A DNA stretch of 64,000 nucleotides, taken from the sequence record PQ471460.1; one strand, 5' to 3'. This DNA comes from Escherichia phage vB_EcoM_JE01. Positions within the stretch are counted from its first letter, which is position 1; the number at the start of each line of letters is the position of its first letter. Below the pieces are notes generated by a model. The model ran no database searches, was not told the origin of the DNA, and saw only the letters and a program-made list of their open reading frames with translations. Shown here one piece after another: positions 7,739-47,406 of the stretch. The position numbers and the translations under genes were made by a program.

Positions 7739-8104
7739 ATGTATATTGGTAGAAAATATGAACTTGTTCCAAGACTTATTGATACATTTATTAATTATCG
7801 CCCGCGTTCTAATTCATCAATAGTTAAAATTATTCAAGAAAATGGCGGATGGTTTGAAGTTAAAGAAGCTTTCTTTGCTGATGGATTTAGAGTAATAAAA
7901 CACATTGAATGCGCTAATGGAAAGCATTTTTACTTCAACGTCTGTGAAGACGAATTTCATTGTTTCCGCGAGTATAAAGAACTGACTTCTGAAGAAGATG
8001 AAGTCGAAGACAAGATTTCTGGCGTAACAAAAATTCACTGCATTGTAGACGAAAACAATGTAGATGAAATCATTGAACTTTTGCGAAAAACTTTCAAAAA
8101 GTAG
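7739..8104 (+). CDS. Small early ORF in the 32-frd interval (121 aa), function unknown
   Basis: ATG with GAGGA SD; several Cys/His residues. Confidence 0.6.
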   Translation: MYIGRKYELVPRLIDTFINYRPRSNSSIVKIIQENGGWFEVKEAFFADGFRVIKHIECANGKHFYFNVCEDEFHCFREYKELTSEEDEVEDKISGVTKIHCIVDENNVDEIIELLRKTFKK

Positions 8105-8133
8105 TTTACAGAAGGGTAGTAGTGTGATACTAT
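8104..8133 (+). promoter_or_regulatory. Early promoter (GTTTAC -35, TACTAT -10)
   Basis: gtttac 8104..8109, tactat 8128..8133; short inverted repeat agggt/accct brackets the -10. Confidence 0.4.
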
Positions 8134-8158
8134 TACCCTATCAACTAAGGAGAATAAA

Positions 8159-15611: not shown

Positions 15612-17199
<1,588 letters not shown>

Positions 17200-17202
17200 G
17201 CT

Positions 17203-17256
17203 GTTTACAAGTCCCTCGTGTTGTGTTATAGTAGACTTACTGACATAACATGAGGA
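17203..17256 (+). repeat. Copy A of a ~54-bp repeat containing an early promoter (GTTTAC...TATAGT) and SD, upstream of alc
   Basis: gtttacaagtccctcgtgttgtgttatagta[gac]ttactgacataacatgagga; near-identical copy at 32896..32949. Confidence 0.8.
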
Positions 17257-17260
17257 CTTT

Positions 17261-17767
17261 ATGATGGATTTACAGCTTATTACTACTGAAATGGTCGTTG
17301 AAGCATATGGTGATACTACAGATGGGATTTCTGTATTTAAAGGAAATCGTCGAGTTGGATATATCACCGATCTTAAGAAAGATTTAGCTAAGCAAGTCAA
17401 GCGGAAAACGACCATTAAAGAATATCGAAATCGTCGTCTTGAGCAAGCCCGTGATATGCTTCCTGATGCGGTTGAGGAGATGAAAGTCTTTTTAGAAAAT
17501 CAGCTTGCGAAATATGATTGTGATGTGTTCATTAATCAGACTCAACCTAATGTTCATATCAATAATTGTAAATGCTACATCATCGTTAATCCTTTGACGG
17601 GAAAACATCGTCTTGGAATTAGTAATCCAAATCGTAGTGCATCAGATATGGCAGAAGATGTTGAGGCATGCTTTAAAATTTCTAAATCTCCGGCTGAACA
17701 TCATATTTTAATTAACGGTCTTTCTCAAGACGATATTGTAGAGGTTATTAAAACTTTATGCAATTAA
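17261..17767 (+). CDS. alc: Alc, inhibitor of host transcription elongation
   Basis: 168-aa ORF immediately after rnlA, as in T4 (Alc 167 aa). Confidence 0.8.
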   Translation: MMDLQLITTEMVVEAYGDTTDGISVFKGNRRVGYITDLKKDLAKQVKRKTTIKEYRNRRLEQARDMLPDAVEEMKVFLENQLAKYDCDVFINQTQPNVHINNCKCYIIVNPLTGKHRLGISNPNRSASDMAEDVEACFKISKSPAEHHILINGLSQDDIVEVIKTLCN

Positions 17768-23707: not shown

Positions 23708-23884
23708 ATGGCAAAACAAGCTAAAGCAAAGAAAGCAGTTGAAAAGAAAGTTGGTGATTCTAAACGCGCTGGTTACAAGCGTGGGTCGAACTCTCGTATC
23801 AATCAAACTGTTGAGAAGATCATGCGCCGAGCACGTGCGGTTCTTCGAGATGATGCTTCTCGTTTTGGTAAGCAGAAAGCATAA
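23708..23884 (+). CDS. Small basic protein (30.9-like), function unknown
   Basis: ATG 23708 (MAKQAKAKKA...), Lys/Arg-rich; ORF track starts further upstream at 23666. Confidence 0.5.
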   Translation: MAKQAKAKKAVEKKVGDSKRAGYKRGSNSRINQTVEKIMRRARAVLRDDASRFGKQKA

Positions 23885-23890
23885 GTTGAG

Positions 23891-23913
23891 GACTCCTTCG
23901 GGAGTCCTTTTTT
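23891..23913 (+). terminator. Rho-independent terminator (UUCG tetraloop hairpin + T-run)
   Basis: gactccttcgggagtcc followed by tttttt. Confidence 0.75.
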
Positions 23914-23937
23914 ATTTTCCAAAGATTGCACAAAGTT

Positions 23938-23967
23938 GTTTACAGTATGGTTCCTTTGTGATAGTAT
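23938..23967 (+). promoter_or_regulatory. Early promoter (GTTTAC -35, TAGTAT -10)
   Basis: gtttac 23938..23943; tagtat 23962..23967; inverted repeat cctttgt (23953..23959) / acaaagg (23980..23986) overlaps the downstream SD. Confidence 0.45.
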
Positions 23968-23994
23968 TATCTTACACAAACAAAGGAGAATAAA

Positions 23995-24327
23995 ATGAAA
24001 ACGATTAATCTGAACGCTGCGGTTAAAACTAAATGCTTCAATGGTAAATATGATGAAACTATGTGGTTCTTAATGGCAGTTGAAGGTGATATTATTGAAG
24101 TAGAAACAACAGAAGGTATGGGAACAGATTTCACCTTTACAATTCAAGTTCATAATTTCTTTACTGGTTGGATTTATGAATTGAATACAGTAATCGTTGG
24201 AAAAATTGAACAAAATGAATTAGGTGAATGGTATTATGTTACAGCTCGCCAACGTGCAGAACGCTTAATTGAGAAGATGAAAAAAGTTGGCAAACTTGAC
24301 ATGCAGCACTGGAAAGTAGTAAAATAA
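23995..24327 (+). CDS. Hypothetical protein (30.8-like, 110 aa)
   Basis: ATG with AAGGAG SD. Confidence 0.55.
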   Translation: MKTINLNAAVKTKCFNGKYDETMWFLMAVEGDIIEVETTEGMGTDFTFTIQVHNFFTGWIYELNTVIVGKIEQNELGEWYYVTARQRAERLIEKMKKVGKLDMQHWKVVK

Positions 24328-24329
24328 TT

Positions 24330-24358
24330 GTTTACTTTGGTACAGGATATGATATTAT
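24330..24358 (+). promoter_or_regulatory. Early promoter (GTTTAC -35, TATTAT -10)
   Basis: gtttac 24330..24335; tattat 24353..24358; 8-bp inverted repeat ggtacagg/cctgtacc flanks the -10. Confidence 0.45.
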
Positions 24359-24394
24359 ATACCTGTACCGCAATTAAACATCTTGGAGAATAAA

Positions 24395-28710: not shown

Positions 28711-28718
28711 TATAAATA
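28711..28718 (+). promoter_or_regulatory. Late promoter (TATAAATA) upstream of alt
   Basis: tataaata about 24 nt upstream of the alt ATG; Alt is a virion-packaged late protein. Confidence 0.6.
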
Positions 28719-28741: not shown

Positions 28742-30835
28742 ATGGAACTTATTACAGAATTATTTGACGAAGATACTACTCTTCCGATTACAAACTTAAA
28801 TCCAAAGAAGAAAATACCGCAAATTTTTTCAGTTCATGTTGATGACGCAATTGAACAACCAGGCTTTCGTTTATGTACCTATACATCTGGAGGTGATACT
28901 AATCGCGATTTAAAAATGGGCGATAAAATGATGCATATTGTTCCTTTTACATTAACTGCTAAAGGTTCAATTGCTAAATTAAAAGGTCTCGGTCCAAGCC
29001 CAATTAATTACATCAATTCAGTTTTTACTGTTGCAATGCAGACGATGCGTCAGTATAAAATTGATGCCTGTATGCTCCGTATTCTTAAGTCTAAAACTGC
29101 TGGTCAAGCTCGACAAATTCAAGTTATTGCTGATAGACTTATCCGTAGTCGTTCAGGTGGCAGATACGTCCTTCTTAAGGAACTCTGGGATTATGATAAA
29201 AAGTATGCATATATTCTTATACATCGCAAAAATGTATCACTAGAAGACATTCCAGGAGTTCCTGAAATTAGTACCGAGCTCTTTACTAAAGTTGAATCGA
29301 AAGTCGGCGATGTTTATATCAATAAAGATACTGGAGCTCAAGTAACTAAAAATGAGGCAATTGCTGCTTCTATTGCACAAGAAAATGATAAACGTTCTGA
29401 CCAAGCTGTAATCGTTAAAGTTAAAATTTCCCGTAGAGCAATTGCACAAAGTCAGTCATTGGAATCTTCTAGATTTGAAAGTGAATTATTCCAGAAATAT
29501 GAATCTACCGCAGCTAATTTCAATAAACCTGCTACAGCTCCTTTAATTCCCGAAGCAGAAGAAATGAAGCTTGGAATTAATTCATTAGCTTCTAAAACTA
29601 AGGCAGCAAAAATTATTGCCGAAGGAACCGCAGATGAACTTCACTATGACTATAAATTCTTTTCAAAAAGTGAGGTTAATGAAGTTTCTGAAAAAATTAA
29701 AGATGTAATTCTCAATGCGATTAAAAATGAACCAACCACTTCAATAAAATGTTTAGAGAAATACGCAGCAGCTGTTAATCAATTCTTTGAAGAATATAAA
29801 GATAATTGGCTTGATAAACATAATAAAACCCGTAAAGGACAGCCAGATGAAGTCTGGGAAGAAATAACTAAAAATTCCTGGAACGCAGCAAAAACTAAAT
29901 TCCTCAAACGAATGATTTATAGCTTTTCTGGAATTGGTGCAGGTCCAATGATTGATATTACTATTGCCCGTGATGGTTCTAAATATACTCCATCGCAAAA
30001 GCGCGGCATTAGAGAGTATTGTGGATCAGGATATACTGACATCAATAATCTTCTTTTAGGCCGCTACAATCCAGAACGATATGATGTAATGAGTGAAAAA
30101 GAAATTGAATCTGCGATAAATAATTTAGATTCAGCTTTTGAAAATGGTGACCGTATACCAGAAGGCATTACAGTTTATCGTGCTCAAAGTATGACTGCTC
30201 CTATATACGAAGCGCTAGTTAAAAATAAAGTGTTCTATTTCAGAAATTTTGTATCTACTTCTTTAACTCCTATCATTTTTGGACGTTTTGGAATTACACA
30301 TGCTGGCATCGGTCTTTTAGAACCAGAAGCTCGTAATGAATTAACAGTTGATAAAAATGAAGAAGGAATAACTATTAATCCAAACGAAATAAGAGCGTAT
30401 AAAGAAAATCCTGAATACGTTAAAGTTCAAATAGGATGGGCAATTGATGGAGCTCATAAAGTTAATGTTGTATATCCAGGAAGTCTCGGAATAGCAACAG
30501 AAGCTGAAGTTATTCTACCACGCGGATTGATGGTCAAAGTTAATAAAATAACTGATGCTTCTAATAATGACGGAACAACATCTAATAATACAAAACTCAT
30601 TCAAGCTGAAGTTATGACTACGGAAGAACTCACTGAATCGGTAATCTATGATGGAGACCATTTAATGGAAACTGGTGAAGTAGTTGCAATGACAGATGAT
30701 ATTGAAATAGAAGACAGAGTTGACTTTGCATCATTTGTTTCATCAAATGTTAAACAGAAAGCAGAATCATCTCTTGGAATTATTGCGTCTTGCATAGATA
30801 TTACAAACATGCCTTACAAGTTCGTTCAAGGATAA
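28742..30835 (+). CDS. alt: Alt-type ADP-ribosyltransferase (head-packaged), paralog 1
   Basis: About 697 aa; MELITE N-terminus; C-terminal ART hallmarks: Arg in GITVYRAQS, STS motif FVSTSL, ExE-type motif ATEAEVILPRG. Confidence 0.85.
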   Translation: MELITELFDEDTTLPITNLNPKKKIPQIFSVHVDDAIEQPGFRLCTYTSGGDTNRDLKMGDKMMHIVPFTLTAKGSIAKLKGLGPSPINYINSVFTVAMQTMRQYKIDACMLRILKSKTAGQARQIQVIADRLIRSRSGGRYVLLKELWDYDKKYAYILIHRKNVSLEDIPGVPEISTELFTKVESKVGDVYINKDTGAQVTKNEAIAASIAQENDKRSDQAVIVKVKISRRAIAQSQSLESSRFESELFQKYESTAANFNKPATAPLIPEAEEMKLGINSLASKTKAAKIIAEGTADELHYDYKFFSKSEVNEVSEKIKDVILNAIKNEPTTSIKCLEKYAAAVNQFFEEYKDNWLDKHNKTRKGQPDEVWEEITKNSWNAAKTKFLKRMIYSFSGIGAGPMIDITIARDGSKYTPSQKRGIREYCGSGYTDINNLLLGRYNPERYDVMSEKEIESAINNLDSAFENGDRIPEGITVYRAQSMTAPIYEALVKNKVFYFRNFVSTSLTPIIFGRFGITHAGIGLLEPEARNELTVDKNEEGITINPNEIRAYKENPEYVKVQIGWAIDGAHKVNVVYPGSLGIATEAEVILPRGLMVKVNKITDASNNDGTTSNNTKLIQAEVMTTEELTESVIYDGDHLMETGEVVAMTDDIEIEDRVDFASFVSSNVKQKAESSLGIIASCIDITNMPYKFVQG

Positions 30836-30838
30836 ATC

Positions 30839-32896
30839 ATGGAACTTATTACAGAATTATTTGACGGCGCTTCGGCGCCGGTTGTTAACTTAAATCCTAA
30901 GCATAAAATACCTCAAATTTTTGCTATTCAAGCAGGTGAAGAAAGCGTGCTTCCTGGATTTAGATTTTGTACATACACCTCTGGCGGTGATACAAACAAA
31001 AACGTTAAGCCAGGCGATAAAATGATGCATATCGTAATGATAGGTGTTAATGAGAAACTATCATTAGTTAAACTTAAAAACTTGGGTGGAAATCCAATTG
31101 GTGTTATTAATGCAGTTTTTGATACTGCTCTTCAAACAATGAAACAGTATAAAATTGACGCATGCCTATTCCGCGTACTAAAGAGTAAAACAAACGGTGC
31201 AGCTCGTCAAATGCAAGTTATTGCCGACCGTTTAGTACGTACTAAAGGAGCAGGTCGATATGTTCTTTTAAAGGAAATCTGGGACTATGATAAGAAATAT
31301 GCATATATTATGGTTTATCGTAAAAATGCCAATTTAGAAGACATTCCAGGTGTACCTCCTATTTCAACTGAGTTATTCACAAAGGTTGAATCAAAGGTTG
31401 GTGATGTTTATGTAGATGTTAAAACAGGTAATGCTGTTCCTAAAGCTGTTGCTGTTGCTGCTTCTATTGCTTTAGAAAATGATAAGCGCACGGATCAAGC
31501 TGTAATTCAAAAAACTAAAATTAGTCGTCGATTAGCAGCACAAGCTCAATATTCTACTGTCGATGCTTCACTTCAGGGTGATAGCTTCGCTGCTAAGAAA
31601 TACCAAGAGTTTGAATCTAAAGTTCCGGTATATAAAGCAGAAGGACCAATGAACTCCGGCGTTATTCAGGTTGGTTCAAACTTCAGCAAAGGAGCTATCG
31701 GTGGTATGAGAAGTGCTTCTCGTTTTAAATCTAATGATTATGAACTAGAAAGCTTCCGAAATCATATTGCATTGGCTCATGCACGTTTACGTGATCCATC
31801 TATCAAGTTACAGAGCGATATAACATATCAAGGTTCTCAAGAATATTTAAAGAATAAAGAATTTTTTGATTATAAAACTGATAAAATTTTAAGCGATCTT
31901 GCTGACATTAATATTTCTAATAGCTTTGATGTTATTAAGAAAATCGTCAATGATTTAGTTAAAGGTTCTAAAGCCACGCCAGATGAAAAGGTAGCTATTG
32001 TTCAATTTGTCATGAATGGCGTGTATAAATTGATTAATGAGTCTGCTTCTCAAGCGTATGAATATGCAAGTACTGAAGTACCCCCAAAAGGATTAACTCA
32101 GGCTGAGTCTGATGTAATTGAAGATTATTGTGCAGATTCATATGTTGAAATGAACTCGTTCCTTTTAGGTAAACCGGATTCTACCCGTGAAGAATATATG
32201 GAACGAGCTATTAAACACATCGAGACAATGGATTCTGCCTTTGCCAAAGGATCAGTTCTTCCTCCAGGAACTACACTTTACCGTGGGCAAGAAGTTACTT
32301 TTAAAACTTTACGTCATAATATTGAAAATAAAATGTTCTATTTCAAGAACTTCGTATCCACATCGCTTAAACCAAATATCTTCGGTGAGTATGGTAAAAA
32401 CTATATGGCTCTAGATGATTCCAGTACAGTATTTTCTGGTGAAGGAGAAGGTTCAGTTGATGCTGAAGATTTAATGCATATGGGTAGTCACTCTGCTTAT
32501 GCGAATGAAGATGCTGAAACTAGCGTAGGTATGGTAATTAAAGGGGCTGAGCGAATTAAAGTTATCGTTCCAGGTCATTTATCAGGATTTCCATCAGAAG
32601 CTGAAGTTATTTTACCACGTGGAATTTTGCTGAAGATTAATAAAGTGAGTACGTACATGATGAAAGAAACTGCTTATAACAAGTATCTAATCGAAGGCAC
32701 AATCGTTCCTCCTTCTGAACAATTAGAAGAATCGGTATATGATGGCGACCACCTGATGGAAACTGGTGAAGTTCGTCCAATGACTGGGTTTAATCAATTC
32801 CTTGTAGAAGAATCAAAAGAAGAGGAAAACGAAGTTTCTCAAATCTTGGCTTCTTTGATTAACATCAACGGAATGTCTAAAAAGTTCAAAATGTAG
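30839..32896 (+). CDS. Alt-type ADP-ribosyltransferase, paralog 2 (tandem)
   Basis: 685 aa; N-terminal about 200 aa closely similar to paralog 1; retains YRGQE, FVSTSL, SEAEVILPRG and conserved YDGDHLMETGEV; central region divergent. Confidence 0.8.
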   Translation: MELITELFDGASAPVVNLNPKHKIPQIFAIQAGEESVLPGFRFCTYTSGGDTNKNVKPGDKMMHIVMIGVNEKLSLVKLKNLGGNPIGVINAVFDTALQTMKQYKIDACLFRVLKSKTNGAARQMQVIADRLVRTKGAGRYVLLKEIWDYDKKYAYIMVYRKNANLEDIPGVPPISTELFTKVESKVGDVYVDVKTGNAVPKAVAVAASIALENDKRTDQAVIQKTKISRRLAAQAQYSTVDASLQGDSFAAKKYQEFESKVPVYKAEGPMNSGVIQVGSNFSKGAIGGMRSASRFKSNDYELESFRNHIALAHARLRDPSIKLQSDITYQGSQEYLKNKEFFDYKTDKILSDLADINISNSFDVIKKIVNDLVKGSKATPDEKVAIVQFVMNGVYKLINESASQAYEYASTEVPPKGLTQAESDVIEDYCADSYVEMNSFLLGKPDSTREEYMERAIKHIETMDSAFAKGSVLPPGTTLYRGQEVTFKTLRHNIENKMFYFKNFVSTSLKPNIFGEYGKNYMALDDSSTVFSGEGEGSVDAEDLMHMGSHSAYANEDAETSVGMVIKGAERIKVIVPGHLSGFPSEAEVILPRGILLKINKVSTYMMKETAYNKYLIEGTIVPPSEQLEESVYDGDHLMETGEVRPMTGFNQFLVEESKEEENEVSQILASLININGMSKKFKM

Positions 32897-32949
32897 TTTA
32901 CAAGTCCCTCGTGTTGTGTTATAGTAATCTTACTGACATAACATGAGGA
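32896..32949 (+). repeat. Copy B of the ~54-bp promoter-containing repeat
   Basis: gtttacaagtccctcgtgttgtgttatagta[atc]ttactgacataacatgagga; matches 17203..17256 with a 3-nt difference. Confidence 0.8.
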
Positions 32950-32956
32950 ACACAAA

Positions 32957-33247
32957 ATGAAATCTTCTTTGCGCTTTTTAGGTCAAGAACTTGTAGTTGA
33001 AGGCGTTATTCCTGCTGATAACGCCTTTAATGAAGCAGTTTATGATGAATTTATCAAAATTTTTGGAACAGATAAAAAGTTCGGAATTTTTCCTTCTGAA
33101 AATTTTTCAAAGCCAGAGCAGACTGAAAGTATTTTCCAAGGTGTAGTAACAGGTAAATTTGAGTCAGAAGCTCCAGTAAAAATTGAAGTTTATATTGAAG
33201 ACAGTTTAGTTGCTTCAGTTTCTGCTTTTATTTCATTCCGTAAATAA
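32957..33247 (+). CDS. Small ORF downstream of the alt pair (96 aa), function unknown
   Basis: ATG with GAGGA SD inside the repeat; ends at a bidirectional terminator. Confidence 0.55.
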   Translation: MKSSLRFLGQELVVEGVIPADNAFNEAVYDEFIKIFGTDKKFGIFPSENFSKPEQTESIFQGVVTGKFESEAPVKIEVYIEDSLVASVSAFISFRK

Positions 33248-33251
33248 AAAT

Positions 33252-33273
33252 ATGGGGACCTTTCGGTCCCCAT
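33252..33273. terminator. Bidirectional hairpin terminator between convergent genes
   Basis: atggggacctttcggtccccat palindrome between the + ORF and gene 54 (-). Confidence 0.65.
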
Positions 33274-46378: not shown

Positions 46379-47377
46379 ATGTTTAAAAAGTATAGCAGTC
46401 TTGAAAATCATTACAATTCTAAATTCATTGAAAAACTTTACAGTTTAGGATTGACTGGCGGCGAATGGGTAGCTCGTGAAAAGATTCACGGTACAAACTT
46501 TTCATTGATTATTGAGCGTGATAAAGCAACTTGTGCTAAACGTACTGGACCGATTCTTCCTGTTGAAGATTTCTTTGGGTATGAAATTATTCTAAAGAAT
46601 TATGCTGATTCCATTAAAGCAGTACAAGATATCATGGAAACTTCAGCAGTTGTATCTTATCAAGTCTTTGGCGAATTTGCTGGACCTGGCATTCAGAAGA
46701 ATGTCGATTATGGTGATAAAGATTTTTATGTATTTGACATTATTGTTACTACCGAAAGTGGTGATGTGACTTATGTCGATGATTATATGATGGAATCATT
46801 CTGTAATACATTTAAAATGGCTCCACTTTTGGGTCGCGGTAAATTTGAAGAGCTTATTAAATTGCCAAATGATTTAGATTCTGTCGTCCAAGATTATAAT
46901 TTTACAGTAGACCATGCTGGATTAGTTGATGCAAATAAATGTGTTTGGAATGCCGAAGCAAAAGGCGAAGTATTTACCGCTGAAGGTTATGTATTGAAAC
47001 CTTGTTATCCTTCTTGGATGCCTAATGGCAATCGCGTAGCAATTAAATGCAAGAACTCTAAATTTAGTGAAAAGAAAAAGTCTGATAAGCCTATTAAAGC
47101 TAAAGTTGAATTGTCAGAAGCTGATAACAAGCTGATGGGAATTTTAGCTTGCTACGTTACACTGAACCGAGTAAATAACGTTATTTCTAAAATTGGAGAA
47201 ATTAGTCCAAAAGATTTTGGAAAGGTGATGGGACTAACTGTTCAAGATATTTTGGAAGAAACTTCTCGTGAAGGTATTACTCTAACTCAAGCGGATAATC
47301 CTTCTTTAGTTAAAAAGGAATTAGTTAAAATGGTACAAGATGTACTTCGTCCGGCTTGGATTGAATTGGTAAGTTAA
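46379..47377 (+). CDS. rnlB: RNA ligase 2
   Basis: 332 aa; adenylation lysine motif EKIHGTN; matches remembered T4 Rnl2. Confidence 0.9.
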
Positions 47378-47383
47378 ATAAAA

Positions 47384-47406
47384 AGGGACCTTTCGGTCCC
47401 TTTGTT
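47384..47406. terminator. Bidirectional hairpin terminator between convergent rnlB and gene 24
   Basis: agggacctttcggtccct flanked by A-run and T-run. Confidence 0.7.

Follow-up and report, generated by a model that had tools for sequence, protein, structure and literature searches.

Two kinds of regulatory elements that combine a promoter with a stem-loop have been described in T4-like phages. The first are the PeSL cassettes, in which a stop codon, an early promoter, a stem-loop, a Shine-Dalgarno (SD) sequence and an ATG are found together; according to the sections of the two reports that deal with their structure, these cassettes are intergenic, repeated within a genome and proposed to move by recombination at conserved motifs (Arbiol et al., 2010, PMC2839356; Comeau et al., 2014, PMC4122927). 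The second are the hairpins of T4 genes e, soc, 49 and I-TevI, where long RNAs hide the SD and/or the AUG and an internal promoter in the 5' strand or the loop gives a translatable short RNA (review PMC3014915). Here, we analysed 64,000 nt of Escherichia phage vB_EcoM_JE01 (sequence record PQ471460.1; this whole stretch is called the window, and coordinates refer to it unless another genome is named) and describe a 54-nt early promoter-leader cassette that is present twice, upstream of alc and upstream of alt.-3, and that belongs to both of these known kinds. Its most informative feature is a long RNA hairpin in which the promoter spacer pairs with the region of the SD.

The two copies have the same order of parts, the same intergenic and repeated nature and the same proposed mode of movement as the PeSL cassettes. 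With regard to the T4/PST promoter type given for PeSLs in those sections (TTTACW-N17-TAYWAT), the -35 box and spacing match, and the -10 box TATAGT has G for A at position 5 (some natural variants are TATAAT). The RB49 and phi1 stem-loops, as portrayed in the relevant part of Arbiol et al. (2010), lie between -35 and -10 or overlap the -10 box and contain G-T pairs, which is the same position class as the cassette hairpin. On the other hand, the T4/PST stem-loops are placed by the same sections just upstream of the promoter, with an AGNA...TCNT consensus, whereas in the present cassette the -10 box and the start are enclosed by the stem, which joins an anti-SD to the SD; at neither copy did a search upstream of the -35 box reveal a stem-loop (z-scores of -1.55 and +0.27). 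Also unlike PeSLs, the cassettes lack a U-tract, which makes a terminator role of the hairpin doubtful, flank 15.7 kb that include essential genes rather than a small dispensable open reading frame (ORF), and have no associated indel. Since the PeSLs of the T4/PST pair were catalogued from self dot-plots, as stated in the portion of Comeau et al. (2014) on this pair, the alc/alt.-3 pair may already be listed there.

The geometry of the cassettes is the same as that of the e, soc, 49 and I-TevI hairpins: GAGG of the SD is predicted to pair with CCUC in read-through RNA coming from upstream and to be open in RNA from the cassette's own promoter. The internal promoter of those four genes is late (TATAAATA) and delays translation until the late phase, whereas the cassette promoter is a sigma-70 early promoter, so that translation would be confined to the early phase. 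Because of this difference, the element would work like that family without being a classical member of it, and neither alc nor alt.-3 is among the T4 examples of hairpins sequestering the translation initiation region that are listed in the review (PMC3014915).

A repeated early promoter with a long hairpin

A first-pass annotation of the window, made from the letters alone, had proposed a near-identical repeat of ~54 bp at two loci 15.7 kb apart. Our repeat search of the window located both copies, at 17203-17256 and 32896-32949 (spacing 15,693 nt), and they are identical at 52 of 54 bases (96%). Self-comparison of the window gave only two mismatches, GA at 17234-17235 in copy 1 versus AT at 32927-32928 in copy 2; the annotation had correctly located this difference and described it as a block of three nucleotides, one of which, a C, is in fact common to both copies. 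When up to three mismatches were allowed, only two sites matched (with 0 and 2 mismatches), and 100 dinucleotide shuffles of the window gave 0.00 matches at the same threshold. The identity between the copies breaks off abruptly, on the left at the G of GTTTAC and on the right after GAGGA. Copy 1 is located between the rnlA stop codon and alc, and copy 2 precedes the small ORF after the alt pair, which is T4 alt.-3 (DUF5498); these neighbours, as well as the interval content of pseT, cd, 31, rIII, 30 and the alt pair, agree with the annotation.

Each copy is a promoter and leader with a complete early-type promoter and the SD of the downstream gene, again as annotated. An upstream stop codon stands at the 5' end of each cassette, and GAGGA lies 7 nt before the ATG in both. 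Both copies carry the T4 early (sigma-70) pattern, i.e. a GTTTAC/TTTACA -35 box, a spacer of 17 nt (16-18 nt in the pattern), a TGn extended -10 and TAnnnT, and the genes downstream are early in T4. They score 10 of 12 consensus matches plus TG, and the predicted start sites were derived from promoter geometry. Upstream of the -35 box, where this promoter class has an AT-rich UP element, copy 1 has the AT-rich sequence ttttttgaaaaattataaaaaattt and copy 2 only ctaaaaagttcaaaatgta, which is within the coding end of alt.-2. In T4, alc and alt.-3 are early in both RNA and protein, alt is late, and alt.-1/alt.-2 RNA is middle (PMC9697503); this timing fits an active early promoter directly before alt.-3. 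No promoter features are annotated at either locus in the T4 records AF158101 and NC_000866.

It is known that T4 early promoters share an extended consensus beyond the -35 and -10 boxes (Hinton, 2010, PMC2988021). The + strand of the window carries seven further early promoters of the GTTTAC type, which are alike only in the -35 box, the TG/-10, a cTTAc-like start region and the SD. Thus, ordinary T4 early promoters have only consensus positions in common, whereas the alc/alt.-3 pair is alike throughout the spacer and leader as well. When five other early cassettes of the window were compared from -35 to SD, they showed 59-73% identity and unrelated spacers, and therefore the 96% identity of the pair is more than consensus.

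The RNA of each cassette is predicted to form an 18-22-bp hairpin of about -22 to -24 kcal/mol (z about -5.5). A hairpin had been noticed here before, and its existence holds, but its size had been given as 6 bp, which RNA folding shows to be far understated. The 54-mers fold at -22 kcal/mol each (z of -5.0 and -5.8), and copy 1 with its flank (17203-17263) at -24.4 kcal/mol (z of -5.5); in each case, 0 of 200 shuffles was as stable. Among random 62-nt windows, only 0.5% have a z of -5 or lower. The lower stem at alc pairs AAGUCC (17209-17214) with GGACUU (17254-17259) and runs 3 nt beyond the 3' end of the repeat into the locus-specific flank; above it are the main stem (17216-17227 with 17242-17253), the upper stem (17230-17233 with 17238-17241) and a tetraloop (17234-17237). 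In cassette numbering, positions 12-25 (CCUCGUGUUGUGUU) pair with 40-53 (GACAUAACAUGAGG), followed by an AU bulge, a 4-bp upper stem (AGUA/UACU) and the tetraloop at 32-35.

These parts of the hairpin coincide with parts of the promoter. The 5' arm with the anti-SD CCUC follows the -35 box immediately, within the promoter spacer; the upper stem and loop contain the -10 box, the discriminator and the predicted start (at about position 37), and the 3' arm is transcribed leader that includes GAGG of the SD. Both mismatches between the copies fall in the loop. When folded as DNA, the sense strand reaches -9.6 kcal/mol versus -5.1 kcal/mol for the antisense strand, and three stem pairs are G-U, which points to the sense RNA as the folding species. 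A search of Rfam found no family at either cassette and only two sub-threshold chance matches elsewhere.

Hairpin conservation and the probable origin of the second copy

We compared the regions upstream of alc in 26 IMG/VR contigs and in IME08, ATK47, VR25 and Melville. As RNAalifold offered no structure, the hairpin was assessed by shuffles within each lineage and by a test of arm duplexes, own versus cross-lineage. About ten lineages, namely Tequatrovirus, Dhakavirus, VR5, Gelderlandvirus-like contigs, EcS1, mar005P1-like contigs and four more, have a long hairpin at alc that starts right after TTTACA and encloses the -10 box (z of -3.6 to -6.6, 0 of 300 shuffles in each). The arms are unrelated between lineages and complementary within each of them, for example TCCTCATTTTGTTG/CAACAAAATGAGGA, TCTCCGTTT/AAACGGAGA and ACCTCTCATTTT/AAAATGAGAGGT. 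Duplexes of own pairs have a mean of -20.2 kcal/mol versus -11.0 kcal/mol (standard deviation 4.1) for cross-lineage pairs, and none of 20,000 permutations reached the observed mean. Close relatives show double compensatory changes (TTTTGTTG/CAACAAAA versus TTTCGTT/AACGAAA, and CAT/ATG versus CAG/CTG). The SD is within the stem in eight of the ten hairpin lineages, where the predicted cost of unfolding the RNA from SD to AUG (the opening cost) differs by 8-12 kcal/mol between read-through and own-promoter RNA. The hairpin is real and conserved at alc, and the hairpin-promoter design is old at this locus, where it has been kept by co-varying arms in many T4-like genera.

Another arrangement was seen at the same site in VR25 (L017 15486-15560), VR20 and a related contig (L052), where an extra ORF of 77 amino acids is inserted between rnlA and alc exactly at the site of the cassette. 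This ORF (in L017, L034, L035 and L052) is preceded by a GGGG-TGTACAAG-CCCC stem and a T-run over a degenerate -35 box, which resembles a classic PeSL.

The distribution of the 54-mer itself is narrower. A blastn search found it at 997 places in 499 phage records, among them T4, T6, RB14 and RB9; this amounts to about two places per genome, each with an identity of 90% or more. The record counts agree with the numbers of records that have close alc and alt.-3 genes. Both loci have one and the same genus consensus (GTTTACAAGTCCCTCGTGTTGTGTTATAGTAGTCTTACTGACATAACATGAGGA), and some genomes carry two copies without a single difference (54 of 54 bases). Each copy of the window has one private change relative to this consensus; T4 has GTC in both copies at the spot of the window mismatch, and its copies differ at one other base. 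The long hairpin at alt.-3 was found only in Tequatrovirus (z of -4.7 to -6.4). In the outgroups, alt.-3 promoters have a short spacer palindrome (z of 0 to -1.6) and an opening-cost difference of about 0-1.5 kcal/mol, and the alc and alt.-3 cassettes of the same genome are 57-75% alike, which is near the 59-73% background of unrelated early cassettes.

Among the explanations offered by the first-pass annotation, transfer of a promoter cassette between loci is therefore favoured: outgroups have different promoters at both sites, and the alc type occurs at alt.-3 only in Tequatrovirus. About 40 nt between the common GTTTACA and (A)TGAGGA motifs would have been copied from the alc to the alt.-3 promoter on the Tequatrovirus stem lineage, giving the 54-nt repeat. 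This direction is suggested because the alc-type architecture is ancestral at alc and because the lower stem outruns the repeat only at alc. Thus, the sequence comparisons speak for a cassette transfer in the Tequatrovirus ancestor, with alc as the donor and alt.-3 as the recipient. The putative copy event ends in the -35 and SD motifs, like the PeSL crossovers mapped in the part of Arbiol et al. (2010) on recombination. Naming the donor locus from percent identity was tried and failed (75% versus 72%), and the direction rests on the hairpin architecture and the reach of the stem into the alc flank.

The short palindromes of the outgroups lie within the -35/-10 spacer, at alt.-3 of ATK47 (L013 15940-16000), IME08 (L003 19940-20000), L017 and L018 and at alc of L040 and L051. 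They co-vary and have GGA in the loop (ACACAT-GG-ATGTGT, CCACAT-GG-ATGTGG, GCAC-AAGGAA-GTGC, CATCC-ATGGAA-GGATG and ACACC-AAGGAA-GGTGT); as RNA, such a palindrome resembles a CsrA-type GGA hairpin.

After the transfer, the copies appear to have diverged slowly. We collected 12 cassette haplotypes, in which six variable paired sites stay paired through one-sided changes (G-U to A-U or G-C; G-C or U-A to G-U), two variants break a pair (C12A and G29A) and three are unpaired (bulge or loop). Overall, 98.6% of cells remain paired among the within-genus variants and no double change was observed, which makes this pairing compatible with the hairpin and not decisive for it. One alt.-3 variant, C11T in L056, lengthens the stem into its own flank (GUUCC/GGAAC). 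In nine genomes in which both copies were read, no derived variant is common to the two copies of any genome, which suggests independent drift by single substitutions rather than continuing homogenisation. Pattern scans of the IMG/VR and JGI metagenomes yielded 8 and 9 loci, which provided haplotypes and were too few for a population test of gene conversion.

Predicted occlusion of the Shine-Dalgarno sequence and its alternatives

The predicted behaviour of the two RNA species differs at both loci. Read-through RNA with both arms would be supplied by middle-mode nrd-rnlA transcripts at alc and by late alt transcripts at alt.-3; such RNA would fold, bury the SD and leave the downstream gene untranslated. 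In contrast, own-promoter RNA is predicted to begin about 7 nt past the -10 box, inside the upper stem, and would carry the 3' arm without the 5' arm, leaving the SD free. The opening cost is 14.0 kcal/mol in read-through RNA versus 3.0 kcal/mol in own-promoter RNA at alc, and 12.2 versus 4.6 kcal/mol at alt.-3, and the own-promoter leaders are unstructured (-2.6 and -2.2 kcal/mol, z about 0). In this way, expression of alc and alt.-3 could be tied to the early promoter and insulated against transcription from upstream. A terminator scan found no terminator between the upstream gene and either cassette. Of the mapped T4 middle promoters, PnrdB and PI-TevIII lie upstream of rnlA, and neither alc nor alt.-3 has one (PMC2988021). 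Upstream transcription is thus to be expected, given the lack of terminators, the middle promoters upstream of rnlA and the late motif before alt. We regard SD occlusion on read-through RNA as the best-supported mechanism and lean towards it with moderate confidence.

Several points weigh against this mechanism or limit its scope. Where transcription starts, how the RNA folds in vivo and whether translation is blocked are matters of prediction. In two alc lineages (L037/L050 and L043) the hairpin is present and the SD lies 1-3 nt outside it, with opening-cost differences of 2.7 and -1.3 kcal/mol. Nor is the design universal, as Mosigvirus, L051 and L039 lack the long alc hairpin. The early promoters at 8104 and 24330 of the window have hairpins that span the -10 box without contact to the SD, which implies that promoter hairpins may have a more general role. 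Promoter-embedded stem-loops have also been read as transcription attenuators, a function that the relevant part of the PeSL report shows for one RB49 element (PMC2839356). MAFFT and RNAalifold, applied to 13 alc cassettes, gave no consensus structure, because stem registers differ between lineages. The variation within the genus, which has no double compensatory change, is statistically uninformative, and percent identity gives no direction of transfer (75% to IME08 alc versus 72% to IME08 alt.-3).

Hairpins were also observed at other early promoters of the window. At the promoter 23938-23997, before the ORF 23995-24327 (T4 30.8-like), an anti-SD in the spacer (TCCTTTG) pairs with CAAAGGA; opening from SD to AUG costs 10.8 kcal/mol in read-through versus 0.7 kcal/mol in own-promoter RNA, the same signature as in the alc cassette, and a terminator lies just upstream (23888-23909). 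The hairpins at 8104-8140 and 24330-24372 enclose the -10 box with z of -3.0 and -4.1 (a z of -3 or lower is found in 3% of random 62-nt windows). Promoter-embedded hairpins seem to be common among the early promoters of this phage.

The main rival to SD occlusion is an action of the hairpin in transcription or RNA processing. It would attenuate or pause transcription from upstream, or serve as a 3' stabiliser or RNase site, and the overlap with the SD would be secondary. Such a role has been proposed for PeSL stem-loops, whose RB49 and phi1 examples share the position of the cassette hairpin as noted above, and one PeSL was as effective as the rrnB T1 terminator in reducing expression from a transcriptional lacZ fusion, according to the expression section of that report (PMC2839356). 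Moreover, the hairpins at promoters 8104 and 24330 and in the alc lineages L037 and L043 exclude the SD. However, no U-tract follows the stem in copy 2 or in the ten alc lineages, which have A-rich tails instead (e.g., AACACAAAAUG and AAAACAAAAUG), and the terminator scan does not call the cassette hairpins. In addition, an attenuator has no need for an anti-SD directly after the -35 box that co-varies with the SD region in eight of ten alc lineages. We therefore consider this explanation rather unlikely. Two narrower candidates were rejected: an intrinsic terminator, because the stem lacks the canonical sequence signature (no U-tract, no call in the scan), and a DNA operator bound by a sequence-specific dimer, which would not fit arms that have no sequence in common from one lineage to the next.

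The repeat could also serve chiefly homologous recombination, with deletion, duplication or circularisation of the 15.7 kb between the copies as the outcome; deletion and duplication had been suggested by the first-pass annotation. Direct repeats of 54 bp are long enough for this, as T4 recombination was reported to need less than 50 bp of homology (Singer, 1982, as cited in the part of PMC2839356 on recombination), and the same part describes PeSL pairs of RB49 and phi1 that yield mini-circles by crossovers between the -10 box and the SD. Such events are mechanistically possible but have no support in natural genomes: among the 499 records and 997 copies, with about two copies each, no third copy, deletion or duplication was seen, and alc and alt.-3 are each single-copy in every record. 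The lack of shared derived variants in the nine genomes indicates that exchange is rare at most. Genes 30 and 31, which lie inside the interval, are essential, and a 15.7-kb duplication would exceed the headful capacity of T4. Recombination as the chief role of the repeat is improbable, even if rare junction molecules may form.

Continuing gene conversion, instead of one old transfer followed by slow drift, might keep the copies alike. Some variants do occur at both loci in different genomes: the window, ZN18 and EcNP1 have T33A at alc and RB9 has it at alt.-3, and G32A is usually found at alt.-3 but at alc in L019. These sites belong to the unconstrained loop, where recurrent mutation is plausible, and the majority of variants are confined to one locus (alc for T27C and G16A; alt.-3 for G29A and G40A). 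In none of the nine genomes do the two copies share a derived variant, and each copy has diverged by about 1 in 54, much as the flanking DNA has (2.5-4%). Accordingly, continuing conversion is, if anything, even less probable than a chief role in recombination. Convergence for promoter strength on the T4 early consensus is hardly credible: these promoters do have an extended consensus (PMC2988021), but the five other window cassettes have unrelated spacers, the same two promoters are only 57-75% alike in outgroup genera, and the chance expectation is zero; the shuffles and cassette comparisons effectively refute both chance and consensus as the sole cause.

Gene context and significance

The window belongs to Tequatrovirus; over 18 kb, its identity to phage EcNP1 is 97.5%, and its early genes lie on the + strand. 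The features of the two loci are listed in Table 1. That a late-promoter motif (TATAAATA) precedes the first alt paralog agrees with the late synthesis of the Alt protein and its packaging into virions. T4 has only two short remnants (alt.-1 and alt.-2; T4 32886-33271) of the second alt paralog, which is intact in the window, and the cassettes are consequently 13.2 kb apart in T4 versus 15.7 kb here.

Table 1. Positions of the cassettes, their promoters and hairpins, and neighbouring features in the window.
Feature	Coordinates	Strand	Remarks
Cassette copy 1 (alc locus): early promoter, leader and SD	17203..17256	+	Begins 4 nt past the rnlA stop (17197-17199)
Cassette copy 2 (alt.-3 locus)	32896..32949	+	52/54 versus copy 1; first base is G of the TAG stop of the second alt paralog
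Promoter, copy 1	17204..17232	+	-35 TTTACA 17204-17209; 17-nt spacer; TGt 17224-17226; -10 TATAGT 17227-17232; predicted start near A17239
Promoter, copy 2	32897..32925	+	-35 32897-32902; -10 TATAGT 32920-32925; predicted start near A32932
alc RNA hairpin	17209..17259	+	-24.4 kcal/mol
alt.-3 hairpin core	32907..32948	+	5' arm CCUCGUGUUGUGUU (32907-32920) with GACAUAACAUGAGG (32935-32948); loop 32927-32930; -22 to -23 kcal/mol, z -5.4 to -5.8
alc SD GAGGA	17252..17256	+	Within 3' arm
alt.-3 SD GAGGA	32945..32949	+	Within 3' arm
rnlA (gene 63)	16075..17199	+	Upstream source of read-through RNA into alc; no terminator in between
alc	17264..17767	+	167 amino acids; Pfam ALC PF17527; alternative ATG at 17261
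Late-promoter motif TATAAATA	28711..28718	+	20 nt before first alt paralog; late read-through RNA towards alt.-3 probably starts here
Second alt paralog	30839..32896	+	685 amino acids; stop overlaps copy 2; T4 alt.-1/alt.-2 are remnants
alt.-3 homologue	32957..33247	+	96 amino acids; DUF5498; T4 alt.-3
Two-way terminator-like hairpin	33252..33273	.	Between alt.-3 and gene 54; closes promoter-ORF-terminator module

Three other observations were made in the window. The two alt paralogs are ~58% identical, and their first 28 nt (ATGGAACTTATTACAGAATTATTTGACG, 28742-28769 and 30839-30866; peptide MELITELFD) are identical including synonymous sites, which could reflect local gene conversion or constraint on the 5' end or on a capsid-targeting peptide. 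Two terminator hairpins 14 kb apart (33224-33270, i.e. the two-way terminator between alt.-3 and gene 54, and 47354-47400) have a common core, GGGACCTTTCGGTCCC. A weak Rfam match to the Rhizobiales small RNA Atu_C8 at 23840-23923 (31 bits versus a gathering score of 50) overlaps the terminator 23888-23909; in all likelihood, a hairpin was matched by chance.

Tentatively, and with somewhat less confidence than in the occlusion mechanism by itself, the cassette may be seen as an "early-only" translational insulator of T4-type phages, in which an anti-SD in the sigma-70 spacer is ancient at alc and was copied to alt.-3 as a working module. If this were true, the gene would be translated only from its own immediate-early transcript and be silent on middle and late read-through RNA, and the transfer would document that a functional regulatory cassette has moved from one site to another in the same phage genome.

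SD occlusion, if correct, would represent a new temporal control in the best-studied lytic phage, limiting translation to the immediate-early window by means of a 5' arm that is at the same time the promoter spacer. It would explain why alt.-3 protein is early despite the place of the gene at the end of a late transcription unit, and how Alc can be made independently of the nrd-rnlA middle transcripts, which are long-lived. The 54-nt unit could also be useful in phage engineering, as a compact insulator for expression from its own promoter only. Should the mechanism fail, an ordinary pair of PeSL-type early promoters remains. The probable transfer from alc to alt.-3 would be a clean case in nature of a promoter-leader module copied to another locus, the ends of which fall within the conserved -35 and SD motifs, and it supports the idea that T4-like genomes are rewired through exchange at regulatory cassettes.

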